Assembly (NCBI GenBank): GCA_964479695.1
Contig: CAYZSO010000003.1
Span: 60,567-92,566, forward strand
Direction: 5' to 3'
DNA: 32,000 nt
Source: an uncultured Fastidiosipila sp.
GTDB lineage: Bacteria; Bacillota; Clostridia; Saccharofermentanales; Fastidiosipilaceae
Shown piece after piece: positions 2,676-18,733 of the stretch. The notes below the pieces were generated by a model, which saw nothing but the letters and a program-made list of their open reading frames with translations, was not told the DNA's origin and did not search any database. The position numbers were made by a program, and so were the translations under genes. Within the stretch, counting starts at the first letter, position 1; each line of letters starts with the position of its first letter.

Positions 2676-3344
2676 ATGAACTATTTGGCCATCATAGGTG
2701 ACATGATCAAATCCCGCGAGATCAAGAATCGTAAGCAAGAGCAAGAGCGGATAGAAGAAGTCCTCAGTAAAATCAATCAGCAATATCAGGAGATCATAGT
2801 TTCCAGGATCACGTTGACGCTTGGGGATGAATTTCAGGCGCTTCTAAAGATAGACCACCGAGTCATGCAGATGTTGGATGACCTCGAAACTCAATTGGAA
2901 TTGCCCTATAGGTTGGGGATCGGCTTTGGCCAAATTCGGACGAAGATCAGACCGGAAATCAGTATCGGAGCCGATGGGGAGGCCTTCTGGCACGCGAGGG
3001 AAGCGATTGAGAATATCCATGAGAACGATTGGGGTGGCTATGCCAAAGTCCGGTTTATGGGACTGGGGGAATTGCAGGACCAAACGATCAACGCACTCTT
3101 TCGCACGACTGATACAATAAAACAGAGTTGGACGACGACGAGGAGGGAAACGTTTGCGGAACTTCTGGCGCAAGGGATTTACAGCGTGACCTTTGACCAG
3201 AAGCGTTTTGCGGAATCAATCGGAATCTCTCAGAGTAGTTTGAGTAAGAGGCTTTCCGGTGGGGCGATCAAGATTTATTTGGACGCCCGCCAAACCATAG
3301 GTGAATTATTGGAGGCTTGGTGTGACACAACTGTCGACTCTTAG
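2676..3344 (+). CDS. SatD-family protein: N-terminal cyclase-like region with C-terminal HTH-like region
   Basis: Strong SD GGGAGG. N-terminus AIIGDMIKSRE and LTLGDEFQALL resemble the SatD family of the Streptococcus mutans sat operon. The C-terminus (FAESIGISQSSLSKRL) looks like an HTH. Confidence 0.75.
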   Translation: MNYLAIIGDMIKSREIKNRKQEQERIEEVLSKINQQYQEIIVSRITLTLGDEFQALLKIDHRVMQMLDDLETQLELPYRLGIGFGQIRTKIRPEISIGADGEAFWHAREAIENIHENDWGGYAKVRFMGLGELQDQTINALFRTTDTIKQSWTTTRRETFAELLAQGIYSVTFDQKRFAESIGISQSSLSKRLSGGAIKIYLDARQTIGELLEAWCDTTVDS

Positions 3345-4056
3345 TTTGCTGGTGTTGATCGCTCATTTCCTGGGCGATTACCACTTTCAGAGCGAAAGCA
3401 TGGTGCGGGCGAAACAGCGATCACTGCGAGGACTCCTTCGGCACATAGGTGTTCAGGGGCTTTTGTTGCTGCCACTGCTGCTCTTTGCCGGCATTTCGCG
3501 TGATCTCACTTGGGTCTATTTGGGGTTAACGATTCTTGCCGGCCATTTCGTGCTGGATTTTCTGAAACTTGTTCTTGATCGGCAGAAGCAGAAATCCGCA
3601 GGGCGTTACGAGGCGGTGATTTACGTGATTGATCAAGTCTTGCATGTTACGCTGATTCTTGTTCTGAGTACGTGGGTTTTCCCCGTGTTTCCGCCCGCGT
3701 GGTTGCAGCGGGATTGGCTTACGTGGGGCCTCCTTGCTGTGCTGATTACGAAGCCGGCGAATGTTACGTTCAAAATTCTTTTTCGCAAGTACCGCTTCTT
3801 CGAGATCCCGAATCCGCAAAAGGCTGTCAGTGAAACGCAGGCTGGTGCGGGTGCTTTGATCGGCAATTTGGAGCGGCTTTTGTCAGCGATTTTCCTGGGT
3901 ACAGGCCAGGTTGCCGCGATCGGCTTGATCTATACGGCCAAGTCGATTGCCCGCTTCAAGAAGATTGAGGAGAACCAGAGTTTCGCGGAATATTACCTCA
4001 TTGGCACATTGTATAGCATCCTTTATGTTACGGTCTTCTTCTATTTGATCGTTTGA
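3322..4056 (+). CDS. DUF3307-type polytopic membrane protein (usual SatD partner)
   Basis: HFLGDYHFQS motif and several hydrophobic segments. I place the start at GTG 3322, 6 nt after GGAGG (3311-3315), overlapping satD by 23 nt. The track start is 3301. Confidence 0.75.
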   Translation: MTQLSTLSLLVLIAHFLGDYHFQSESMVRAKQRSLRGLLRHIGVQGLLLLPLLLFAGISRDLTWVYLGLTILAGHFVLDFLKLVLDRQKQKSAGRYEAVIYVIDQVLHVTLILVLSTWVFPVFPPAWLQRDWLTWGLLAVLITKPANVTFKILFRKYRFFEIPNPQKAVSETQAGAGALIGNLERLLSAIFLGTGQVAAIGLIYTAKSIARFKKIEENQSFAEYYLIGTLYSILYVTVFFYLIV

Positions 4057-4091
4057 CCCAGGGCAGCCCCCAGCCACGGTTCCACCCTTAT

Positions 4092-4107
4092 TTTGGCCAA
4101 AGCCGCC
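4092..4107. repeat. copy of the iterated palindrome (TTTGGCCAAAGCCGCC)
   Basis: Intergenic. Shares GGCCAAAGCCGCC with 11766-11778 and 27550-27562. Confidence 0.8.
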
Positions 4108-4192
4108 CGCAACACAGGTCACTTCTTCGGTCCAGGCAAAGGCCTATAATCAGGGTCAGGCATGAAACCGTCAAAGGAAAGGAGATTTAAAT

Positions 4193-4756
4193 ATGACACG
4201 AAGTAATCCGGAAAATAATTCCAAAAGAAATATCCTCATTGTTATTGATATGCAAAACGACTTTGTGAGCGGCAGTTTGGGCACAGCAGAAGCACAGGCG
4301 ATTGTGCCTCGCGTGGTTTCGGAAATTGGTGGTGCTTATTCAGAGGTCCTTTACACGCAGGACACGCATGAAAAAGACTATTTGACAACGGAAGAAGGCA
4401 AACACTTACCTGTGATCCACTGCCAAAATGGGACAGAAGGCTGGGCGATCGAAAGTGGGGTGGGGGTGGCTTTGGCCGAGAGAAAAGCCAAGGGATTTAC
4501 GAAACCGACCTTCGGCTCACTTGACTTGGCGGAAGAACTTGTCCGAATGAACCAGGAAAAGCCGCTGGATCAGCTGACCTTCATTGGCCTCTGCACTGAT
4601 ATCTGTGTGATTTCGAATGCACTTGTGGCGAAGGCACACCTGCCGAATCTCCCGATACGCGTGATTGCTGACTGCTGTGCGGGTGTGACTCCGGAGAGCC
4701 ACGAAACGGCGCTAAGGGCGATGGAAGCGTGCCAAATTGAGATTATCCGAGAGTGA
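4193..4756 (+). CDS. pncA: isochorismatase-fold cysteine hydrolase, nicotinamidase-like
   Basis: VIDMQNDF (catalytic Asp), QDTHEKD...LPVIHC (metal-site-like) and GLCTDICV (catalytic Cys). SD AAGGAG. Confidence 0.7.
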   Translation: MTRSNPENNSKRNILIVIDMQNDFVSGSLGTAEAQAIVPRVVSEIGGAYSEVLYTQDTHEKDYLTTEEGKHLPVIHCQNGTEGWAIESGVGVALAERKAKGFTKPTFGSLDLAEELVRMNQEKPLDQLTFIGLCTDICVISNALVAKAHLPNLPIRVIADCCAGVTPESHETALRAMEACQIEIIRE

Positions 4757-4795
4757 AAATAGAGTTAAATAATAGAGTTAAAAAATAGAGTCAAT
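4757..4795. repeat. ATAGAGTTA x3 degenerate tandem repeat directly after the stop codon
   Basis: atagagtta at 4759-4767 and 4772-4780, atagagtca at 4785-4793. The gene end GAGAGTGAAAA resembles the unit. Confidence 0.75.
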
Positions 4796-4954
4796 ATAAT
4801 TACCGTGGGGTGCCTGCGATGTGCAAAGTCAAGGTTAACTCTTAACCTTAGTTTAACCTTCTTCTAACATTCAGAGCGGTGTAGTTTAGTACACTAGAAG
4901 AGAGTTTTCTGCTGAGGCAGCCCGTGTGTTACACGAGGCAAACAGGGAGGAACC

Positions 4955-6685
4955 ATGGGAGAAACGAGGAGACTGACAAGGAGAGACGATCGAGGCGTGG
5001 GAGACGCAAGGATTTCATTTCAGAACGGACTTCGAAAATTTCATCTATTTCAGAAAGGGAAGAAGGGTTTGGGACTTGTTGCGATGGTCCTTGCACTGAC
5101 ACTCTTTCTTGCAGCTTGTGGCAACGGGACTACAACGGATTCACAAGCGGATAAGGTATTCCCGGGGCAGCGGGCACAAAGTACGATAAGAATTGTGTCC
5201 GGGTCGGAGAACCGGGTATTGGAACCAATTATTGAAGAATTTACCAAGAAAAATCCGGTGACCATCGAAATGACCTATATGGGGTCTCTCGAGATTATGC
5301 GTTTGCTTCAGGGCGACCAAATTCCATATGATGCGGTCTGGCCGGCTTCCAGTTTATGGGTTTCGGTAGGTGATGAGGCCCACCGGGTCAAGCACCTGGA
5401 ATCGACATCAACAACGCCTGTCATCTTCGGTATCAAAGAGAGTGTGGCCGAACGTCTGGGGTTTATTGGCCGAGATGTGTATGTGCGTGACCTACTGACA
5501 GCAATCCAGAATAAAGAACTGACGTTTACAATGACTTCCGCGACCCAGTCCAATTCCGGCGCGAGTGCGTATATCGGCTTCATCTATGCCCTGCTGGGCT
5601 CGCCTGAACAAATTACGCTTGAAGCGCTCCATGACCAGAATTTCCAAGAAGAAATGCGCAATTTACTAGCCGGTGTAGAACGTTCTTCCGGCAGCTCTGA
5701 TTGGCTGAAGGATCTCTACTTGCAAGGCGATTATGATGCGATGGTGAATTATGAAGCTTTGATTATTTCCGCGAATCAGGAACTTGAGCGTGAGAATCGG
5801 GAAGTGATGCATGCAATCTACCCGGTGGACGGCATGATGATGGCGAATTCGCCCTTGGGTTTCGTGTCGTCGAATGGGGAGTCGGGCAGAGATGAGCAGA
5901 AACAGGAAGAAGCTTTCCTCCGTTTCCAGGAATATCTCCTGAGCACAGAGGTGCAAGATCAAATTCAGCGAACCGGCCGACGGACTGGTGTGGGGAATGT
6001 CGATCCTAAGAATAGTGACGTGTTCCGCACGGATTGGGGGATCGATACCGGTCGAGTGATTTCCACAATTAATATGCCGAAACAAGATGTCTTGTTTGAG
6101 GCTTTGAATCTCTATCAATCTTCGTTCAAGAAGCCCGGCTTGAACGTCTATGTGCTTGATTTTTCGGGCTCGATGCAGGGACAAGGGCGCGAGCAATTGG
6201 TGCAGGCTTTGGGCGAAATTATGATTAGCGAGAACGCGGCAAAGAATTTCCTGCAAGCGTCTGACACGGAGAAAAACGTCTTCATTCCCTTTAACAGTCA
6301 ATCGTACACACCGGAGGCTGTGACCGGTGGCGGCGCGGCGCTGGAAGCGCTCTACCAGGATCTGTCCAAAATCCCGGCGAGCGGCGGGACGGCTCTCTAT
6401 GAGGCGGTCTTGGATGCGCTGGCCTATATTCAAGGTGAAGATCTGAATTACTATTCACCGTCTATCATTATTATGTCCGATGGGCAGCCCAATGGCGCGA
6501 TGAGTTTCCGCGATCTGGAGACCCGCTATCAGGAGATGAAGTTGGATATTCCTATTTTCTCTATCTTGTTTGGCTCGGCGGATGAAAGCCAGATGGACCA
6601 GATTGCCGAGCTTTCGCGAGCGCGGGTTTTCGACGGCCGCGAAGATTTGACTGCTGCATTCCGCAGCGTCAGAGGGTATAACTGA
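4955..6685 (+). CDS. lipoprotein with solute-binding-like N-domain and C-terminal von Willebrand A (MIDAS) domain
   Basis: Lipobox LFLAAC-GNG. The vWA MIDAS residues are DFSGS, GGTALYEA and IIMSDGQPNG. SD GGGAGG. Confidence 0.85.
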   Translation: MGETRRLTRRDDRGVGDARISFQNGLRKFHLFQKGKKGLGLVAMVLALTLFLAACGNGTTTDSQADKVFPGQRAQSTIRIVSGSENRVLEPIIEEFTKKNPVTIEMTYMGSLEIMRLLQGDQIPYDAVWPASSLWVSVGDEAHRVKHLESTSTTPVIFGIKESVAERLGFIGRDVYVRDLLTAIQNKELTFTMTSATQSNSGASAYIGFIYALLGSPEQITLEALHDQNFQEEMRNLLAGVERSSGSSDWLKDLYLQGDYDAMVNYEALIISANQELERENREVMHAIYPVDGMMMANSPLGFVSSNGESGRDEQKQEEAFLRFQEYLLSTEVQDQIQRTGRRTGVGNVDPKNSDVFRTDWGIDTGRVISTINMPKQDVLFEALNLYQSSFKKPGLNVYVLDFSGSMQGQGREQLVQALGEIMISENAAKNFLQASDTEKNVFIPFNSQSYTPEAVTGGGAALEALYQDLSKIPASGGTALYEAVLDALAYIQGEDLNYYSPSIIIMSDGQPNGAMSFRDLETRYQEMKLDIPIFSILFGSADESQMDQIAELSRARVFDGREDLTAAFRSVRGYN

Positions 6686-7314
6686 TGCAGAGTTCACCAC
6701 GCCAGTTTATTTTGGCTTTGCTTGCGGCATTGGCAGTCTTTTTCGGGACCTGGTCCGGTTTACAGTGGCCGGTTCTGCTTGCGGCTGGTCTCGCAGTGGG
6801 TACGTACGTCGGGGTTTATTTGCTGGCTAAGCCCAAGCTTCGCATTGGCCACATCCGCGTGGATTCTTTGCCGGACGGCGATGAATTGAAACGTTTGCTT
6901 CTGGAGGCCAAAGACGATATGGACGCAATTAATCGGGCCAGCAAGCAAATCACCAATCTGCCGATCCGCCAGCAGAGCGAGCAACTTTATCAAACAGGCA
7001 TCCGCATTCTGGAGTATCTCGAGAAAAATCCCGATCGAATCCCGGCCGCAAGGCGCTTCCTAGGTTACTACCTGAATACTGCACGCGATATTTTGGAAAA
7101 ATACTTACCGTTTCAGAACTCCGGTCTGCGAACGGACGAAGTGAAACGTGTGACGCAAGCGACGGAGAGAGCGATGCCGATCTTGAATCAGGCTTTTGAA
7201 ACGCAATTTACGAATTTGATGCAAAACGACATTATGGATATTGAATCCGATATTAAGGTTCTGGAGATGACCTTGCAATCCGAAGGGGGCATACATGGCT
7301 CTGAGCAGAAGTAA
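6685..7314 (+). CDS. XpaC-like (5-bromo-4-chloroindolyl phosphate hydrolysis family) membrane protein
   Basis: 209 aa with two N-terminal TM helices and a helical C-terminal domain. The start overlaps the upstream stop (TGATG). Adjacency to TelA mirrors the xpaC-yaaN pairing of Bacillus subtilis. Confidence 0.6.
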   Translation: MQSSPRQFILALLAALAVFFGTWSGLQWPVLLAAGLAVGTYVGVYLLAKPKLRIGHIRVDSLPDGDELKRLLLEAKDDMDAINRASKQITNLPIRQQSEQLYQTGIRILEYLEKNPDRIPAARRFLGYYLNTARDILEKYLPFQNSGLRTDEVKRVTQATERAMPILNQAFETQFTNLMQNDIMDIESDIKVLEMTLQSEGGIHGSEQK

Positions 7315-8377
7315 TAAACAAATGATTGTTGGCCTTGCCGTCTTGCTTGTCGTGATCGGCGCGGCCGTGGCTTACATGGCTATCAGCGGCAGCCGGCCGC
7401 AGGAAGTCACGCTTTCCGGATACGTCGGCGGCGAGAAGACGAACTTCCTGGAAGACCCGGAAGTTAAGGCGATCTTGAAGAATGATTTCGGCATCACGTT
7501 GGACGTTCACAAGGCGGGTTCGCTGGACATGGTACGTGCCAAGGATTTGGCAGACCGAAATTTCCTCTGGCCTTCCAGTCAGACGGCATTAGAACTTTAT
7601 GAGGACACCGTCGGGCCTACGTATAAAGATGATAATATCTTCAACACGCCGATCGTGCTTTATTCCAGAGCCTATGTGGCGGACGGTCTGGTGGCTGCCG
7701 GCTTAGCAAGTAAAGAGAATGATACGTACTTGGTCGATATGCCGGCTCTGGTCACGGCGATGAAAGAAGACAAGACGTGGGCGGATATTGGTCTTACGCA
7801 GCTTTATGGTTCCATTTCGATCCATACCACAGACCCCTCGAAATCCAATTCCGGGAACATGTTTTCCGGCCTCATTGCGAATATGTTAAATAACAATACG
7901 GTGGTGACGGAGGCGCAAGTGCCGTCTATTTTGCCTGACCTTACCCGGATTTTTGACAAGATCGGTTATATGGAAACGTCATCTTCGGATTTGTTTACCC
8001 TCTTCCTGACAACCGGAATGGGCAACAAGCCCATCGTTGCGGGATATGAGAATCAGCTCTTGGAATTCTCCTCGATGAACAGTCAGGAGTGGCAGAATGT
8101 CAAATCGGATATTGTCATCATGTATCCGACGCCCACTGTCTGGTCCTCTCATATTTTCATCGCCCTCGATAGCGAAGGGGAGAAATTGATGACCGCTCTG
8201 AAAGACCCCAGGCTCCAGCAGATTGCCTGGGAGAAACATGGCTTCCGCACCGGTGTATACGGCTCAACCTCACAAGAGAATAAGTTTGATGTGCCGGGTG
8301 TCGCAAACCAAATTACCCAAATTATCCAAATGCCCGGCTACAAGGCCATGAGTCAAATTGTTGCCGCTTTCGAATAA
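7295..8377 (+). CDS. membrane-anchored periplasmic-binding-protein-like protein, function unknown
   Basis: N-terminal TM anchor MIVGLAVLLVVIGAAVAYMAI. Shares the WP(A/S)S and SNSG motifs with the N-domain of the vWA lipoprotein. SD GAAGGGGG. Overlaps the previous gene by 20 nt. Confidence 0.75.
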   Translation: MALSRSNKQMIVGLAVLLVVIGAAVAYMAISGSRPQEVTLSGYVGGEKTNFLEDPEVKAILKNDFGITLDVHKAGSLDMVRAKDLADRNFLWPSSQTALELYEDTVGPTYKDDNIFNTPIVLYSRAYVADGLVAAGLASKENDTYLVDMPALVTAMKEDKTWADIGLTQLYGSISIHTTDPSKSNSGNMFSGLIANMLNNNTVVTEAQVPSILPDLTRIFDKIGYMETSSSDLFTLFLTTGMGNKPIVAGYENQLLEFSSMNSQEWQNVKSDIVIMYPTPTVWSSHIFIALDSEGEKLMTALKDPRLQQIAWEKHGFRTGVYGSTSQENKFDVPGVANQITQIIQMPGYKAMSQIVAAFE

Positions 8378-8460
8378 GAATTTACACCGCAGAATAAGAA
8401 TTAACCGCAGAACAAGAATTAAACCGCAGAATAAGCATTTACACCACCAAACAAGAATTC
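8372..8460. repeat. 18-19-nt degenerate tandem repeat ACCGCAGAA(T/C)AAGAATT(A)A, ~4 units
   Basis: Units begin at 8386, 8404, 8423 and 8441. The first GAATAAGAATT includes the TAA stop of the upstream gene. Confidence 0.8.
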
Positions 8461-8478
8461 AGAAGTGGAGGAACTAAG

Positions 8479-9621
8479 ATGGACGGAAAGATCACATTGG
8501 AGGCTTTGGCCAAACAAAAAGAGCTGAGCCCGGACGTAAGTCGCGTAGCAGAAACCAGCGAGGAACTTGCCCAAGCAGCTCCGAAAGAAATTACCCCGGA
8601 AATGCGTAAGCAAGTTGACCAGATCAAGAATGGCATCAATTTGTTGGACTCGACCGGCCTTATTACCTATGGTGCCGGAGCGCAGCGGAACTTGACTGCC
8701 TTTTCGGATAATATTTTACAGAAGGTTCGCTCGAAGGACGCGGGTTATGTGGGGGAGACCTTATCCAATCTGATGGTGACCGTAAAGAGTCTTGAGGTCG
8801 ACAAATTGGGCAACGACAACGGGTTCCTGGCGAAACTCGGTATCGGCAACACGATGAAGAAATTCCTAGCCCGTTATGACACCGTCGAAATGCAAATTGA
8901 TAAGATCGAGGCGGAGCTGGACAAGGCGCAGACGATGCTCTTGAAGGATATTGCGACCTTCGACCAACTCTACGACAAGAACCTCGAGTATTTCAAGGAA
9001 CTGGATACCTATATTGTAGCCGGTGACGAAACCATCAAGGAAGCGCGTGAAGTGACTCTGCCTTCTCTCCGGGCCGAAGCCGCCGCCTCCGACAATGAGA
9101 TGGCCCCGCAACTGGTGCAGGATTTTGAGAATACACTGGATCGTTTTGAGCGGAAGGTGCATGATCTCAAACTCTCGAAGACGATTGCCATTCAAACGGC
9201 TCCACAGGTTCGCCTGATACAGAATAACGACAAACTGCTTGTGGATAAGATCCAAACATCAGTATTGCACACGATCCCTTTGTGGAAAAATCAGATTGTG
9301 ATTGCCCTAGGCCTGCAGAATCAGCAAAAAGTGCTGGAAATGCAGAAGCAAATTTCGGATACAACGAATGACTTGCTGCTGAAGAATTCCGAGATGCTGA
9401 AGCAAAATACGACCGGTGTTGCCCGTGAGACGCAACGCGGTATTGTTGAAATTGAGACCCTGAAGAAAGTCAATCAGGATCTGGTGGAGACGATCGAAGA
9501 GACCATGAAGATCAACGCGGACGGCAGGGCTGCGCGCCAAGCCGCCGAATTGGAGCTGATCGAGATTGAAAGTGATCTCAAAGAGACGATGCTCGCCAAT
9601 ATGACACCACAGGGAAACTAA
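8479..9621 (+). CDS. telA: TelA-family toxic anion resistance protein
   Basis: 380 aa, all-helical, with the TelA/YaaN-like block YGAGAQRNLTAFSDNILQKVRSKDAGYVGETLSNLM. SD GGAGG. Confidence 0.8.
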   Translation: MDGKITLEALAKQKELSPDVSRVAETSEELAQAAPKEITPEMRKQVDQIKNGINLLDSTGLITYGAGAQRNLTAFSDNILQKVRSKDAGYVGETLSNLMVTVKSLEVDKLGNDNGFLAKLGIGNTMKKFLARYDTVEMQIDKIEAELDKAQTMLLKDIATFDQLYDKNLEYFKELDTYIVAGDETIKEAREVTLPSLRAEAAASDNEMAPQLVQDFENTLDRFERKVHDLKLSKTIAIQTAPQVRLIQNNDKLLVDKIQTSVLHTIPLWKNQIVIALGLQNQQKVLEMQKQISDTTNDLLLKNSEMLKQNTTGVARETQRGIVEIETLKKVNQDLVETIEETMKINADGRAARQAAELELIEIESDLKETMLANMTPQGN

Positions 9622-10964
9622 GCTGTGCGGCTGCGATTGCCACTGCCGCTTGAGCTGCCACTGCTGCTAGAGCCACTACGGCCACCACGCCTGTTGTTGC
9701 GGGATCCTCTGCCTGATTGGCGGTGGCTCCCGCTATTTCTTTGTTTGCTGTAAGAGGAAGATTGAGTAGGGTTGCCAGAGTTGCCGAGGGAGTCTTGCGC
9801 CAAAGAAGGCTCCACCGGGAGGTTCCGGGCCGGATACAGGTGATCTTCGACCACCGGGATCTTGGTACCGATGAAACGCACGATATCAGACAGCAACTTA
9901 CGCTCTTCAAGATCACAGAATGATATGGCTACTCCTGCCTTGCCGGCTCTGCCCGTGCGCCCGATGCGGTGAACATAGGATTCCGGGATCTCGGGCAAAT
10001 CGTAATTGAAGACGTGCGAGAGATCGTCAATATCCAAACCGCGGGCCGCGATATCAGTGGCGACCAGCACCCGGACTTGGCGTTTCTTAAAAGCATTCAA
10101 GGCGTTGACTCTGGCATTTTGCGATTTATTACCGTGAATGGCAACCGCATCAATGCCACTGCGACCCAGCTCCTTCACCACTCGGTCCGCGCCATGTTTC
10201 GTACGTGTGAAGACCAGAGCGGATTCAACATCTAAGGTTAGCAAGAGGTGTTGCAGGAGATTTCGCTTATTGGCTCGGTCGACGTAATAGAGACTTTGCT
10301 CAATCGCTTCAACCGTGGTGGTTTCCGGTTCGATGGCGATCCGGTAGGGATCGGTCAGAAGAGACGCGGCCAGCTTCGCAACTTGTGTCGGCATGGTCGC
10401 TGAGAAAAACAAAGTTTGTTTATGCTCCGGCGTGAAGCTTAAGATTCGCTTCACATCATGGATGAACCCCATGTCCAGCATGCGGTCCGCCTCATCCAAA
10501 ACCAGAATTTCCACGTGTTGCAGATTGACCAGTCGCTGGTTGATGAGGTCCAGGAGGCGACCCGGAGTAGCGATGAGGATATCTACATCACGCGCCAAGT
10601 CTCTTTCTTGCTTCTTCTGCGAAACACCGCCAAAGATCACCGCTGTGCGGAGCTTGAGGCCTCTGCCGTAGCTGCGGTAATTGTCGTAAATTTGTAGGGC
10701 GAGCTCGCGGGTCGGTGTAAGGATCAGCGAGCGGATCGGGCGTTTGCCGCCACGACTGGTTTCAGTCGTTTCGTTGAGTAATTGGAGCGTCGGCACAGCG
10801 AAGGCAGCCGTTTTGCCGGTGCCGGTTTGCGCAGAGGCTAAGATATCGCGTCCGCTCAGAATGGCGGGAATGGCTTCTTCCTGGATCGGTGTGGGGTGGG
10901 TATACTGTTCGTTTTTAAGTTCTGCCAAAATCGGCGGAATAATTTCTAATTCTTGAAATGTCAT
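9618..10964 (-). CDS. DEAD-box ATP-dependent RNA helicase with R/G/S-rich C-terminal tail
   Basis: Q motif PTPIQ, then AQTGTGKT, PTRELA, VLDEADRM, SAT and HRIGRTGRAG. Start set at MTFQELE (10964) behind AAGGAG. The track ORF runs to 11345 through the spacer. Confidence 0.92.
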   Translation of the reverse strand: MTFQELEIIPPILAELKNEQYTHPTPIQEEAIPAILSGRDILASAQTGTGKTAAFAVPTLQLLNETTETSRGGKRPIRSLILTPTRELALQIYDNYRSYGRGLKLRTAVIFGGVSQKKQERDLARDVDILIATPGRLLDLINQRLVNLQHVEILVLDEADRMLDMGFIHDVKRILSFTPEHKQTLFFSATMPTQVAKLAASLLTDPYRIAIEPETTTVEAIEQSLYYVDRANKRNLLQHLLLTLDVESALVFTRTKHGADRVVKELGRSGIDAVAIHGNKSQNARVNALNAFKKRQVRVLVATDIAARGLDIDDLSHVFNYDLPEIPESYVHRIGRTGRAGKAGVAISFCDLEERKLLSDIVRFIGTKIPVVEDHLYPARNLPVEPSLAQDSLGNSGNPTQSSSYSKQRNSGSHRQSGRGSRNNRRGGRSGSSSSGSSSGSGNRSRTA

Positions 10965-11063
10965 GGATCTCCTTAAAGTCTTTGCAAGACAACCCAGACA
11001 ATATACCACGTTTGGACCATAAAAAGTGTGTTTTGCCGCAAATGGCGGCAATCCCTTTGCAGT

Positions 11064-11107
11064 CCCACGGCAATCCCACGGCAATCCCACGGTTATCCCA
11101 CGGCAAT
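11064..11107. repeat. 11-mer tandem repeat CCCACGGCAAT x4
   Basis: Units at 11064, 11075, 11086 (CCCACGGTTAT) and 11097. A degenerate leader GGCAATCCCTTTGCAGT precedes them. Lies in the divergent spacer. Confidence 0.85.
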
Positions 11108-11247
11108 CTCGGTGGAAAGTAGGTGGAGCTAAATTTCCAAGGAATAAGGAAGTTGTGCTACTCTGGAAGAAGCATAATCCCGCTTGAGTGGAGCGATATG
11201 CGTAGCGATAAGCAAAGCGATCAGTGAAACGATATGAGGAGAGATCA

Positions 11248-12117
11248 ATGAGTGAGCAAATAGGCATCAACTTGTGGAATTGGGTGAATCGTTCCGCTGA
11301 AATTACACCGGACCTCATTAGGCACGTGGCGAGCCTGGGCTTCAAGGTGATCGAGATCCCGCTGACTGACCCACTGATCGATCCGGGGGTGGAGGGGGCG
11401 GCTTTGGCCAGAACTATTGAGGCGCAAGACCTGCGCGTGAGTACTTGCCTCTCACCGCCACAAGGCTACGATATCGGAGCCACAGATCCCGAAGAACGCG
11501 CGCGAGCGATTGCGTACCTTGAACATGCGATTACCACGTCCGCCGAACTCCACGCTGAGGTCATGGTGGGCCCATTCTTCGCATCGGGTGGCAAGCGGAT
11601 CTGGCTTGAGAAGGACGAACGAGAAGAGCTCTTGGCCGTTGTGGCAGGGAATCTGGCCCAGCTCGCGGAATTCGCTCAGAGCCAGGGGGTCAGGCTCGCC
11701 ATTGAGCCGGTCAACCGCTACCGCACGAGCATCGTGAATACCGCAGAGCAAGCACTCGCTCTCGTGGCCAAAGCCGCCCACCCCAACCTCGGGATCCTCT
11801 ACGACACGTATCAAGCGAACATCGAGGAGACGCACGTGACTCAAGGACTTCGGAAAATCCTCGATGAAGGCAAACTTTTCCATTTCCATGCCTGTGAGAA
11901 TAACCGCAACATTCCGGGCGAAGGGCAAATTCACTGGCCTGAAATTCTGGGTCTCTTGGAGCAAAAGAAGTATGAGGGCTTCCTCACGATGGAACTCTTC
12001 AAGCCCGGAGGCCTAGATGCTGGCTGGGCGTATGAGGATCGTACCCGCGACGAGATTGCAAGGCAAGGTCTGGAGAATCTTCGCAGTCTGCTGGCTGACG
12101 TCGTTATGAGCTCATGA
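11248..12117 (+). CDS. sugar (phosphate) isomerase/epimerase, xylose-isomerase-like TIM barrel
   Basis: Family-typical pattern: IEIPL, E..., LAIEPVNR, ILYDTYQANIEE, FHACEN and MELF. Start moved to ATG 11248 behind GAGGAG. Confidence 0.8.
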   Translation: MSEQIGINLWNWVNRSAEITPDLIRHVASLGFKVIEIPLTDPLIDPGVEGAALARTIEAQDLRVSTCLSPPQGYDIGATDPEERARAIAYLEHAITTSAELHAEVMVGPFFASGGKRIWLEKDEREELLAVVAGNLAQLAEFAQSQGVRLAIEPVNRYRTSIVNTAEQALALVAKAAHPNLGILYDTYQANIEETHVTQGLRKILDEGKLFHFHACENNRNIPGEGQIHWPEILGLLEQKKYEGFLTMELFKPGGLDAGWAYEDRTRDEIARQGLENLRSLLADVVMSS

Positions 12118-16316: not shown

Positions 16317-17756
16317 TCATGAATTCGCTATAAAAATAGCTGTATCAGACAATCCGTCAGCGAGGTCCCGACGATGGGTAGCGATCAGGATGGTTCTCGA
16401 TCCTTTTTCTCTTTGAAACAATTGTAACATTTGCGCCTCTGCTTGTGCATCTACTTCTCGAAATACTTCATCCAAGATCACAATATTGGCAGGTATGGCC
16501 AAAGCCCGGATCAGCGACGCCTTCTGTTTCATTCCACCAGAGTACTCGCGGATCGGTTTTCCGAGAGGAAGACCCAACGAAGTGATCAGCGACTCCCAAT
16601 AGGCAAGAAACGAAACTTCGTCGTCCACGAAGCGACCACCCGCAAATAACAAATTTTCAGACAAAGTAAAATCATCAAGTAAACGCACATCCTGGAACGC
16701 ATAAGAGAAACGTGGTTCGACAGCAAAGCCAATCTGTCCTTGATCCGGCTCCGCCAAGCCTGTGAGAAGTCTGAAGAATGTTGTCTTCCCCTCACCGGAT
16801 GAACCGGTCACAACGACGGTCTGACCCTGCGAAATCTCGCAAGAAAAATCCTGAAGAACCGTCTGTTGCCCATAGGATTTTGCCAGATTCTTCACGGAAA
16901 TCGCCGGATCTGCAGAGCCTACTTCAAGCTGAATATCCGGCTTCTTGCTGACAGAAGACAAGCGGACGGATCTGTGTGGCTTTCGACTTACTTGAAGCGG
17001 GTGCTTACTGAGTACGCCGACCACTTGAGTCAAAACAAACGAGAAAAACAAGATAACCGCCAGGTAAGCCAGGACTTCAGCGCTTTCCAGTTGGATTTTG
17101 GCGTCATAGAGTCCAGTTCCGAGACGGCCAAAAGGCTGTGCCATAATTTCGCCGGTGATTCCTGCTTTCCAAGCAAGGCCCGACGTGTATTCTAGTGAAG
17201 GTTGAAGTTGGCGTATAAGCGAGGGTAAATAAATCGCACGGAAGCGGTCCCCCGTACGAAAACGAAAGACAAAAGCCATCTCCAGGAGTTCCTCTGAGGT
17301 GTCTCGAAGTCCTGCGAGTGCAGAACCATAAAGTGGCGGCACAATCGCCATGAGGACCAGAACAAAAGGGAGGATATCGGGGTCGATCCAGATCATCAGG
17401 ATGATCGTTAGGGCAGCCACCGGCGCACTCTTCACAATCGAAATTATAGGGCAAAAAAATGGTTCCGTGACCGGGAAAAAGTAAGCCAGGAAAGCCAGTA
17501 GAACAGCCAGAGCAAAACCTAAGAGGAAGCCACCGGTGATCGTGAGTACAGAACCACCCACGGAGAGCCAAAACTTGCTTTGCGACAGCAGATTGCCAAG
17601 GGCACGCAGAACGTCCAGGGGACCGGGGAGAAGAACTTTCTGGTTTACCAGAGAGGCCAAGACCTGCCAGACCACCACAAAAAACAAAGCCCCCACCAAA
17701 CCGGAAAGGCTTCCGGATTGACGGCGGCTTGTTTGATAGGCAGGTCTTCTATACAT
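16317..17756 (-). CDS. ABC transporter, fused permease (N-terminal) and ATP-binding (C-terminal) protein, NitT/TauT-like
   Basis: About 260 aa of TM segments. These are followed by Walker A GSSGEGKTT, a Q-loop, signature YSGGMKQK, Walker B VILDE and H-loop ATHR. Confidence 0.85.
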   Translation of the reverse strand: MYRRPAYQTSRRQSGSLSGLVGALFFVVVWQVLASLVNQKVLLPGPLDVLRALGNLLSQSKFWLSVGGSVLTITGGFLLGFALAVLLAFLAYFFPVTEPFFCPIISIVKSAPVAALTIILMIWIDPDILPFVLVLMAIVPPLYGSALAGLRDTSEELLEMAFVFRFRTGDRFRAIYLPSLIRQLQPSLEYTSGLAWKAGITGEIMAQPFGRLGTGLYDAKIQLESAEVLAYLAVILFFSFVLTQVVGVLSKHPLQVSRKPHRSVRLSSVSKKPDIQLEVGSADPAISVKNLAKSYGQQTVLQDFSCEISQGQTVVVTGSSGEGKTTFFRLLTGLAEPDQGQIGFAVEPRFSYAFQDVRLLDDFTLSENLLFAGGRFVDDEVSFLAYWESLITSLGLPLGKPIREYSGGMKQKASLIRALAIPANIVILDEVFREVDAQAEAQMLQLFQREKGSRTILIATHRRDLADGLSDTAIFIANS

Positions 17757-17761
17757 AGAAC

Positions 17762-18733
17762 TTACTTTACATAATAGAAATCATCAGCAGGAACCGTACC
17801 CCCGACCAGTGCCGGATTACTCTCTGCCAAGACTTCAAGATAGGGAGCTAACATCGTTTTGAGTTCACTTCCGGAAACCATGGTAATGCCGCTCTGCGGA
17901 ATGGCTTTTTCCGCAACGGCCGCGCCGATGATCCCTTGCTCATCAATGATTTTGGCAGCGTCTGCCGGGTTTTCGTTGACCCATTTGGCCGAGGCTTGGT
18001 ATTCCTCAAGGAACTTGTCGAACCAAGCCTTGTTATTCTGAACGAAATCCTTGCGGACGACGAGTACGCCAGTGACTACCTGGGAATCCGCGCCCATATA
18101 TTGCTTCCAAAGATCGTCGACGTTTAATTGCGCCTTAATCTTGTCGTTCTTCATTGTGACTGAGGAGAGGAATGGTTCTTGCAGCAGGGCGATCGCACCT
18201 TCCTCTGCCTGGAGGAGAGCGGCGACCTCAGTAGCCTCTGTGCGGAACTCAATGGTGACATCCGTACCGATGGTGAGCCCGGCTTTGGCCAATAAATTCT
18301 GCAAAATGACGTCCGGAGTTGCCCCCTTGCCTGTTGCGTAAACGGTCTTGCCTCGGAGGTCTTCCAGACTGTTCAGCGGAGCGTTATTGGTGGCGAAGTA
18401 GAGCACGTTCAAGACGTTGATGGCAGCGACTTGGATCTTGCCTTCACTCTTGTTGTAGACGGTGGCTGCGAGGTTCGCCGGGATGCAGGCGATGTCTAAT
18501 TCTCCCTTGATCAAGCCTGTGGCCACTTCATCCGGCATCGTCTGGATGTTATAGGAGATCGCAGGATCCGCCTTCGGGTCGAGGTTCGACGTGTACTGCG
18601 CGAGCCCCATGGCTGTGGGACCTTTCATGGCGGCGATTTCCACGGATTCATTGGGTTTCACTGCGGTTTGACAGGCGGTCAAAGTGAGCGCGAGAACAGC
18701 AGCCAGAAAAGGACGAATAAACGTTTTCTTCAT
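17762..18733 (-). CDS. ABC transporter substrate-binding lipoprotein (NMT1/THI5, SsuA/TauA-like)
   Basis: Lipobox LTLTAC-Q. 323-aa PBP-like protein located 5 nt upstream of the permease-ATPase gene. Confidence 0.8.
   Translation of the reverse strand: MKKTFIRPFLAAVLALTLTACQTAVKPNESVEIAAMKGPTAMGLAQYTSNLDPKADPAISYNIQTMPDEVATGLIKGELDIACIPANLAATVYNKSEGKIQVAAINVLNVLYFATNNAPLNSLEDLRGKTVYATGKGATPDVILQNLLAKAGLTIGTDVTIEFRTEATEVAALLQAEEGAIALLQEPFLSSVTMKNDKIKAQLNVDDLWKQYMGADSQVVTGVLVVRKDFVQNNKAWFDKFLEEYQASAKWVNENPADAAKIIDEQGIIGAAVAEKAIPQSGITMVSGSELKTMLAPYLEVLAESNPALVGGTVPADDFYYVK

Follow-up and report, generated by a model that had tools for sequence, protein, structure and literature searches.

The stretch of DNA considered here is a window of 32,000 nucleotides (nt) from an uncultured Fastidiosipila species (Bacillota; Clostridia), corresponding to positions 60,567 to 92,566 of the forward strand of contig CAYZSO010000003.1 in GenBank assembly GCA_964479695.1; "the window" is used below for the whole of this stretch. 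The subject is a run of four genes, called A to D, whose predicted products are a lipoprotein that combines a periplasmic binding protein (PBP) domain with a von Willebrand factor type A (vWA) domain, a member of the XpaC family, a second, membrane-anchored protein of PBP fold, and a member of the TelA family. A first-pass annotation of the window had singled these genes out as a tightly coupled, envelope-spanning operon, and the four open reading frames (ORFs), together with the two overlaps that it reported, are indeed to be seen in the sequence (Table 1). At the A/B junction (6683–6687, aacTGATGcag) the stop codon of A shares 1 nt with the start codon of B; genes B and C overlap by 20 nt, with an AGGGGG Shine–Dalgarno sequence 5 nt before the ATG of C at 7295; and C and D are separated by a spacer of 101 nt, with no translational coupling in the window. 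On this sequence evidence A-B-C-D is a real and tightly coupled predicted operon, the conserved core of which is made up of its first three genes.

Table 1 Features of the predicted operon and its control region, in window coordinates
Feature	Position	Strand	Description
Gene A	4955..6685	+	576 aa; PBP+vWA lipoprotein; GGAGG ribosome-binding site 5' of ATG
Gene B	6685..7314	+	209 aa; XpaC family (PF10112)
Gene C	7295..8377	+	360 aa; signal-anchor and type II PBP fold
Gene D	8479..9621	+	380 aa; TelA family (PF05816); GGAGG ribosome-binding site
Putative operator/promoter of gene A	4842..4895	+	phased direct repeats, weak -10-like box
C-D spacer tandem repeat	8372..8459	+	found with Tandem Repeats Finder (TRF)

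Relatives were collected by scanning one genome per species across 185,579 species genomes, which gave 406 confirmed relatives of A; 80 loci were fetched, and gene order within them was read by tblastn with the four window proteins, 75 loci having enough downstream DNA for the purpose and TelA being counted over 68. Membrane topology was called from hydropathy and from inspection for a lipobox. Seen in this way, the product of gene A has a long basic N-region, a hydrophobic segment at residues 35–60 and then the lipobox LAAC, and a cysteine follows the hydrophobic segment in essentially all orthologues. Pfam recognises SBP_bac_11 (PF13531) at residues 82–342 (48.3 bits against a cutoff of 25) and VWA at residues 398–558 (30.4 bits against a cutoff of 23.8), the limits of the domains being put at about 75–390 for a type II substrate-binding protein (SBP) domain and about 395–576 for the vWA domain. 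The latter carries an intact predicted metal ion-dependent adhesion site (MIDAS), as the first-pass annotation had said in describing it as complete (DFSGS, T, D): the residues concerned, D402-F-S404-G-S406, T479 and D509, are present and invariant in 79 of 79 orthologues. Invariant motifs occur also in the binding half of the same 79 sequences (SGSEN, GSLDIM, PASS, SNSG and RSSGSSD), and mean column identity over the family is 66%.

In an AlphaFold2 model of A (predicted local distance difference test score, pLDDT, 80) the N-terminal half resembles, according to Foldseek, the sugar-phosphate binder AfuA, proteins of the FbpA type and the structure 6lkg. For the C-terminal half the matches are vWA domains, namely those of ITIH1, ANTXR1/2 (CMG2), CLCA1 and the voltage-gated calcium channel subunit Cav alpha2delta (8hmb_E, 7mix_D), with TM-scores (target) of 0.7–0.8 against those of ITIH1, ANTXR and CLCA1. 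A profile search of A against Protein Data Bank (PDB) chains matched only the vWA half and, marginally, an FbpA N-terminus; direct sequence searches of PDB chains with all four proteins gave zero matches, and NCBIfam offered nothing for the four past one sub-threshold vWA match. The combination of SBP_bac_11 with VWA is in itself already abundant, with more than 3300 homologues in the databases, the few of them that bear names being called "VWA domain-containing protein", "substrate-binding domain-containing protein" or "Ca-activated chloride channel family protein".

Gene C encodes a protein with one N-terminal signal-anchor transmembrane helix (residues 6–34; the same in 72 of 75 orthologues) that has no match in Pfam, NCBIfam or PDB sequences, and whose BLASTP comparison with A is insignificant. 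Its kinship with A becomes visible only in profile–profile comparison, where hhalign relates the two families with a probability of 95.6% (E 1.2e-8) over 321 columns, the match running from the N-terminal anchor through to the end of the binding domain. Invariant motifs rich in Ser, Gly and Asn (also Asp) occupy matching positions in the two families, the pairs (C/A) being GGEK/SGSEN, AGSLDM/GSLDIM, PSSQ/PASS, KSNSGN/QSNSGA, TSSSD/SSGSSD and YENQ/NYE; from what is known of type II PBPs, these are presumably to be found at strand-to-helix turns lining the cleft. The AlphaFold2 model of C (pLDDT 89; predicted TM-score, pTM, 0.82) finds as its best Foldseek matches the sulfate-binding proteins 5um2 (E 1.5e-11) and 1sbp (E 2.2e-10), with FbpA, ModA, the metal-citrate binder MctA and PEB3 among the further matches (E 1e-11 to 1e-8 overall), and TM-scores (target) against Sbp, ModA and FbpA lie between 0.59 and 0.72. 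One structure matched by both A and C, 6lkg, was deposited as an SBP of two-component signal transduction. By profile and by model, then, C is a paralogue of the binding half of A that has no vWA domain, with a predicted type II PBP fold, and its earlier description as an anchored PBP-like protein is upheld. The family of C-type PBPs, of which there are 385 representatives at E ≤ 1e-30 among 1.84 billion clusters at 50% identity, is one for which there is no existing family model or annotation. The folds nearest to A and C are those of oxyanion, iron-synergistic-anion and organophosphate binders (Sbp, ModA, FbpA, AfuA, PEB3 and MctA), and from the models we infer that both ectodomains may recognise a small anion, or else a negatively charged component of the envelope, for instance through a phosphate, sulfate or carboxylate group.

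Gene B, which lies between these two, is a clear member of the XpaC family by its match to PF10112 (Halogen_Hydrol/XpaC; 103.2 bits against a cutoff of 29.8, E 2e-29, profile positions 4–191 of 191). Its predicted topology is a hairpin of two transmembrane helices (7–27 and 29–48), joined on the outside by a very short loop, and after it a helical domain that the positive-inside rule places in the cytoplasm; an N-terminal hydrophobic region is present in 68 of 68 orthologues. The product of gene D matches the TelA family (PF05816) over practically the whole profile (369.6 bits against a cutoff of 30, E 1.8e-110, positions 1–331 of 332), and is predicted to be soluble and all-helical, having no transmembrane segment. 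B and D are not homologous to one another (hhalign probability 0.1%). Pfam matches over cutoff for A, B and D, together with hydropathy and the lipobox, therefore reproduce the layout proposed in the first-pass annotation, namely two ectodomains outside, a two-transmembrane XpaC-like protein in the membrane and a cytoplasmic helical TelA inside. One sequence of 563 aa (P0218) presented itself as a fusion of XpaC with C, which if real would be direct evidence for a complex of B and C, but it was set aside as a probable frameshift artefact because it comes from a single contig of 3.5 kb and the B and C frames of that lineage share 31 nt.

The strongest regularity to come out of the survey of loci concerns the first three genes. 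Of the 75 loci, 73 have A, B and C in colinear order on one strand, the only exceptions being one locus in which A is followed by C without an XpaC gene (L052) and one in which C lies in two frames (L055), where a pseudogene or a sequencing error is likely. Median gaps across the loci are -1 nt between A and B, -4 nt between B and C and +22 nt between C and D; translational coupling of A, B and C is therefore indicated, with a fixed stoichiometry implied, while TelA is uncoupled. TelA follows C directly in 35 of 68 loci and the downstream genes vary elsewhere, the loci without it including those of Flavonifractor, Pseudoflavonifractor, Oscillibacter, Intestinimonas and some Lachnospiraceae; it is thus a facultative, if frequent, fourth gene beside a three-gene core. 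The claim that all four genes form one unit, which was to show itself in their co-occurrence in other genomes, accordingly holds firmly for A, B and C but only by about half for TelA.

The triad is kept in hundreds of anaerobes. Most of its carriers are Clostridia, comprising Fastidiosipila, which at 81% identity stands nearest, Lachnospiraceae, Oscillospiraceae/Ruminococcaceae and Acetobacterium, to which is added one Leptolinea (Chloroflexota). It is present also in distant lineages: in metagenome-assembled genomes of Obscuribacterales (L086, without TelA) and Anaerolineae (L087, with TelA), and in a metagenomic contig (L088). At loci of Flavonifractor type (L081/L082), from a very common gut species whose C protein cluster has 1813 member sequences, a Tn916-type integrase and excisionase are found directly upstream of a TelA-less triad; this hints at mobile DNA nearby, though the other loci showed no mobility of the triad.

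All-against-all clustering of the ORFs from the 80 loci showed as conserved only the families of A, B, C and D and their antisense shadow ORFs, and gave no conserved family of permeases, ATPases, kinases or regulators. A permease or ATPase for A or C was found neither here nor in about 85 related loci (L081–L088 included), so that the absence of these from the operon, as first reported, extends to its relatives. The window does contain an ATP-binding cassette (ABC) system, at 16317–18733 on the minus strand and about 7 kb from the operon, with a fused permease–ATPase gene (BPD_transp_1 + ABC_tran, 479 aa) and, adjacent to it, an SBP of its own of the NMT1/phosphonate-binding type (323 aa); it is no obvious partner of A or C.

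A further line of evidence comes from relatives in which the C-type domain is joined to something else. In P0299, and in the near-identical P0389 from an independent assembly, an N-terminal transcription-activator module of winged-helix/BTAD type (wHTH-BTAD) is followed by one transmembrane helix and a C-type domain, and in P0380 a class III nucleotide cyclase takes the place of this module; P0486 is a further, partial BTAD fusion, and a word-index search with distant C-type domains produced few additional cases. The C-type domain can therefore serve as an extracytoplasmic sensor, the input part of one-component signalling across the membrane, in those relatives. These fusions, and the lack of any permease or ATPase, speak for the preference for sensing over transport that was expressed at first pass.

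Upstream of A the window has three direct repeats at a phase of 11 bp, TTAACC (4842–4847), TTAACC (4853–4858) and CTAACA (4864–4869), followed by a weak -10-like TACACT (4890–4895); an 8-nt inverted repeat, AAGGTTAA/TTAACCTT, at 4831–4849 overlaps the first of them. The dimer TTHACH-N5-TTHACH has two matches in the whole window (0.17 expected), both in the intergenic region upstream of A, the second of which, on the minus strand, arises from one copy of a different repeat; this is a 13-nt unit, AAAATAGAGTTAA, that stands in three tandem copies at 4756–4794, between the putative operator and the isochorismatase stop codon, which the copies directly follow. Across the loci the element takes the form TT(T/A)AC(A/C)-N5-TT(T/A)AC(C/A/T), mostly TTTACA-N5-TTTAC(C/A/T), often with a third, ATAACA-like repeat 11 bp further upstream; next come a TAGATA/TAGTGG box and an extended -10-like sequence. 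Of 79 upstream regions, 26 contain the strict dimer (0.17 in shuffles, 5 on the opposite strand) and most of the others have near-matches. The loci, 1.17 Mb in all, hold 49 motif matches, and 28 of these are on the coding strand and no more than 450 nt upstream of A.

Direct repeats phased at 11 bp are typical of response regulators of the OmpR/PhoB family, and the forward strand of the element resembles the half-site of PhoP in Bacillus subtilis, TT(A/T/C)ACA. An exact dimer of the PhoP type (TTHACA-N5-TTHACA) is present at 1 of 79 loci. Read on the reverse strand, the element agrees exactly with the WalR consensus TGTWAH-N5-TGTWAH (PMC9210968) at 9 of 79 loci (0.13 in shuffles); the copy in the window is a weaker variant of the element, of the TTAACC type. 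The repeats, as a candidate operator, suggest control of A by an OmpR-family (WalR/PhoP-like) response regulator, among which a WalR-type regulator is attractive, by analogy, because of the link to YycFG (WalKR) in Enterococcus faecium. A generic sigma-70 scan gave no promoter at 4842–4895, where the promoter is a putative one; more generally, the generic promoter and terminator scan was uninformative, its matches falling below shuffle expectation. A search for a regulon through motif matches elsewhere in the loci led to no consistent downstream gene, and most of these matches look like chance.

To our knowledge neither XpaC nor TelA has a known biochemical activity, and the mechanism of the pair is unexplained. 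That such pairs exist without a known mechanism was stated in the first-pass annotation, the pair belonging to the envelope-stress literature of Bacillota (PMC3498285), but in presenting the operon as an uncharacterised system it overstated the novelty, since XpaC-TelA is an established envelope-stress pair (PMC3498285, PMC3139573, PMC6811118, PMC12791056). In B. subtilis xpaC-yaaN is a core sigma-W operon (PMC3498285); in Lactococcus lactis the pair llmg_1115/telA1 is induced via CesSR (PMC3139573); and in Listeria the pair lmo1966-lmo1967 responds to Lia, a mutant in telA being sensitive to nisin (cited in PMC12791056). In E. faecium a liaR gain-of-function mutant shows a 7-fold rise in xpaC (PMC10269926), and a YycG S333L background a rise in xpaC-telA (PMC6811118). 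Deletion of xpaC alone in this organism lowers the daptomycin minimum inhibitory concentration 8-fold and delocalises anionic-lipid domains, whereas deletion of telA, or of both, has no such effect (PMC6811118). Since loss of xpaC matters only when telA is intact, XpaC acts on or through TelA. Published work on tolerance to tellurite or envelope-active agents concerns only the TelA homologues of Listeria, Enterococcus and Bacillus (PMC12791056, PMC6811118).

The pairs just named (xpaC-yaaN, lmo1966-lmo1967 and llmg_1115-telA1) are like B and D of the present operon in their families, order and strand. However, those of the model organisms have no neighbouring A or C genes, whereas here XpaC is coupled between two proteins of PBP fold, one of them with a vWA domain; the PBP gene C separates XpaC from TelA, and TelA is a dispensable neighbour (35 of 68), unlike in the known pairs. 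The direct-repeat element upstream of A likewise differs from the sigma-W-type control of xpaC-yaaN. No experimental work on the A-B-C-D architecture was found in a full-text search of the literature. Anantharaman, Iyer and Aravind, in 2012 (Mol Biosyst), are said to have predicted membrane sensory complexes of TelA/TerB, perhaps with PBP-II and OmpA domains, and reportedly treated vWA proteins (TerY) as partners of the Ter system. The present operon fits that general picture, and the general idea of TelA-centred sensory complexes with PBP-II domains is thus probably not new; what appear to be additions are the TelA-independent three-gene core, the paralogy of C and A within an unmodelled PBP family, the signalling fusions of C-type domains and the upstream repeats.

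Several better-understood systems offer partial likenesses. In LuxP-LuxQ, TorT-TorS and ChvE-VirA, as may be the case here, a PBP fold outside transport reports a ligand across the membrane; in contrast to these, the present operon has no histidine kinase, cyclase or DNA-binding output, and XpaC is the only transmembrane partner. Cav alpha2delta is, like A, an extracellular lipid-anchored protein with a MIDAS-bearing vWA domain and a small-molecule-binding domain, and it docks onto a membrane protein. The likeness is no more than one of analogy: its binding domain is a Cache domain rather than a PBP, its partner is an ion channel rather than XpaC or C, and there is no common ancestry beyond the vWA fold. 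In the Psp and Lia systems (PspA-PspBC, LiaH-LiaI) a small membrane protein controls or recruits a soluble all-helical effector under envelope stress, which is reminiscent of XpaC and TelA, and xpaC-telA shares its regulation with Lia genes in enterococci, lactococci and Listeria; no sequence relationship between the two sets turned up, although no comparison with PspA was made.

The outline to which these results lead is that of an envelope module that would sense something at the cell surface and feed it to XpaC and TelA, rather than take anything up; we would give this outline an even chance of being right, and its details less. A, through its lipid anchor, and C, through its one transmembrane helix, would sit on the outer face of the membrane, unlinked to any transporter. 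Their PBP clefts and the MIDAS of A would recognise an anionic ligand or an envelope component, with the MIDAS perhaps making a metal-bridged contact to an acidic group on a partner, for which C, the ligand and a polymer of the wall all come into question. XpaC, produced in a constant ratio to A and C, would be the only membrane-spanning element besides the anchors, so that its two-transmembrane hairpin might pass the state of the ectodomains to its cytoplasmic helical domain, and this domain in turn would control TelA, which is presumably encoded at an unlinked site or dispensable where it is not adjacent. The output would be the envelope-stress function of XpaC and TelA, that is tolerance to membrane- and lipid II-targeting agents rather than ligand uptake, and expression would be driven by a WalR/PhoP-type regulator of the OmpR family acting on the phased repeats upstream of A. 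In its most specific form, in which the A-B-C triad is a trans-envelope receptor, uncharacterised until now, whose PBP pair and MIDAS recognise a specific anionic intermediate of the envelope or an anion of the environment and gate XpaC, which then controls TelA, the proposal is a good deal more tentative, and on balance we think it unlikely; candidates would include a lipid carrier with a phosphate or pyrophosphate group, a unit of teichoic acid, and phosphate or sulfate in free form.

A number of the observations weigh against this outline or some part of it. At 33 of 68 loci there is no TelA gene, so the triad may work without TelA or by way of some other component. The outer loop of XpaC has only a few residues, and the conservation of XpaC is modest. 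The C-type domain is rarely fused (two or three contigs with BTAD, one with the cyclase), and the fusions are those of distant relatives, not of the window protein. The class of ligand rests on fold neighbours with TM-scores of 0.5–0.6 at 10–15% identity. The upstream element of the window is a weaker, TTAACC-type variant, and PhoP, WalR and other members of the OmpR family would all fit it. Finally, the loci are phylogenetically related, so that the counts given here overstate the number of independent observations.

The proposal has also to be set against other explanations of the same genes. The absence from the operon of any domain for signalling output would be expected of an envelope tether or maintenance complex that does not signal, in which the PBPs and the MIDAS hold on to an anionic polymer of the wall, for example teichoic acid or a different glycopolymer rich in phosphate, and couple membrane to wall, and in which XpaC and TelA stabilise the membrane beneath in the manner of Psp or Lia. 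The invariant MIDAS and the anion-binder-like PBP folds agree with this, as do the lipid and transmembrane anchors that hold both domains at the membrane surface, and deletion of xpaC in E. faecium redistributes phospholipid microdomains (PMC6811118). We nevertheless regard a tether as unlikely: none of the proteins has wall-binding repeat domains, the triad is found also in Anaerolineae and Obscuribacterales, whose envelopes are unlike those of Clostridia, and the fusion of C-type domains to a cyclase and to transcription activators in relatives argues for the transfer of information. Those fusions to signalling outputs count also against the idea that A and C are orphan scavenging SBPs, capturing phosphate, sulfate or an organophosphate for an unlinked ABC transporter and linked to XpaC and TelA only by shared regulation, for example of Pho type. 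For scavenging one may cite the closest folds, which are those of transport SBPs (Sbp, ModA, FbpA and AfuA), the match of A to SBP_bac_11, the fit of the upstream repeats to the PhoP half-site of B. subtilis, and the fact that XpaC was named for hydrolysing the phosphatase substrate X-phosphate. On the other hand there is no conserved permease or ATPase in about 85 loci, the ABC system of the window is unrelated and has its own SBP, the overlapping frames of A, B and C are translationally coupled, and a fused vWA domain with MIDAS is not a feature of transport SBPs, all of which makes scavenging, in our view, distinctly improbable.

Two other explanations start from single components. If the vWA half is given most weight, A might be a surface adhesin that binds host or matrix proteins after the fashion of pilus-tip vWA adhesins and integrin I-domains, with the PBPs as scaffolds; the resemblance of its vWA half to adhesion domains of the ANTXR/CMG2, ITIH1 and TRAP types, and the prevalence of gut Clostridia among the carriers, could be understood in this way. 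Carriers that are not host-associated (Acetobacterium, Leptolinea and other Anaerolineae, Obscuribacterales) could not, however, and A is extremely conserved (the mean column identity and invariant PBP motifs were given above), whereas proteins of host interaction usually diversify; nor is the obligatory coupling to XpaC and C explained, so that an adhesin seems very improbable. If TelA is given most weight instead, an anti-phage or abortive-infection system comes to mind, by analogy with the resistance of Ter/TelA systems to phage and colicin and with vWA conflict systems. TelA and ter do have historical links to phage and colicin resistance, and one locus (L081) adjoins the Tn916-type genes. 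But PADLOC gave no match at E ≤ 0.01 for any of the four proteins, the neighbouring genes are housekeeping ones that vary between loci, no component resembles a nuclease, NTPase or toxin, and the sequences are highly conserved rather than diversifying; to a role in defence we give hardly any credence.

XpaC and TelA come up again and again where tolerance is screened for, be it to nisin, daptomycin, agents of the bacitracin type or cationic peptides, and they belong repeatedly to regulons (sigma-W, Lia/Ces and WalKR); the triad is common in gut Clostridia. Its ectodomains should be purifiable, its MIDAS and pockets are targets for mutagenesis, and it has a conserved candidate operator, so that the question of what XpaC and TelA do becomes more testable. 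Should the receptor proposal be true, it would provide a first ligand-level entry point into their function, and C would stand for a new family of PBP sensors reused by cyclases and BTAD regulators; should the genes turn out instead to encode a scavenging system or a wall tether, they would still be a widespread and wholly unannotated component of the envelope.

There remain some features within and around the operon that can be described briefly. The C-D spacer is largely taken up by a tandem repeat with a unit of 18–19 nt, GAATAAGAATTAACCGCA, in about 3.6 copies, which begins at the stop codon of C (TRF); the number of units is higher by one in a 99%-identical strain (L084) and nil in the relative of 81% identity (L001), and the repeat is therefore seen as a recent insertion of variable copy number. 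The generic scan gave no terminator-like site in this spacer, which also has no Rfam match, and no Rfam family was matched in the window from 4000 to 10000. Upstream of the operon lie a SatD-family gene, a gene for a DUF3307 (SatE-like) membrane protein and an isochorismatase gene, all of them apparently unrelated to it; the frames of the SatD and DUF3307 genes (2676–4056) overlap, and they are kept in the near-identical strain. Downstream lies a convergent, likewise unrelated DEAD-box helicase gene (9618–11345, minus strand), which overlaps the 3' end of the TelA gene by 4 nt. Neither the TelA stop codon nor the TelA/helicase junction showed a terminator-like site, and the nearest plus-strand terminator candidate is at 9718–9735, about 100 nt downstream and within the helicase gene. 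The C-terminal coding region of this helicase contains an 18-nt tandem repeat (9638–9673), which suggests a tail of low complexity.

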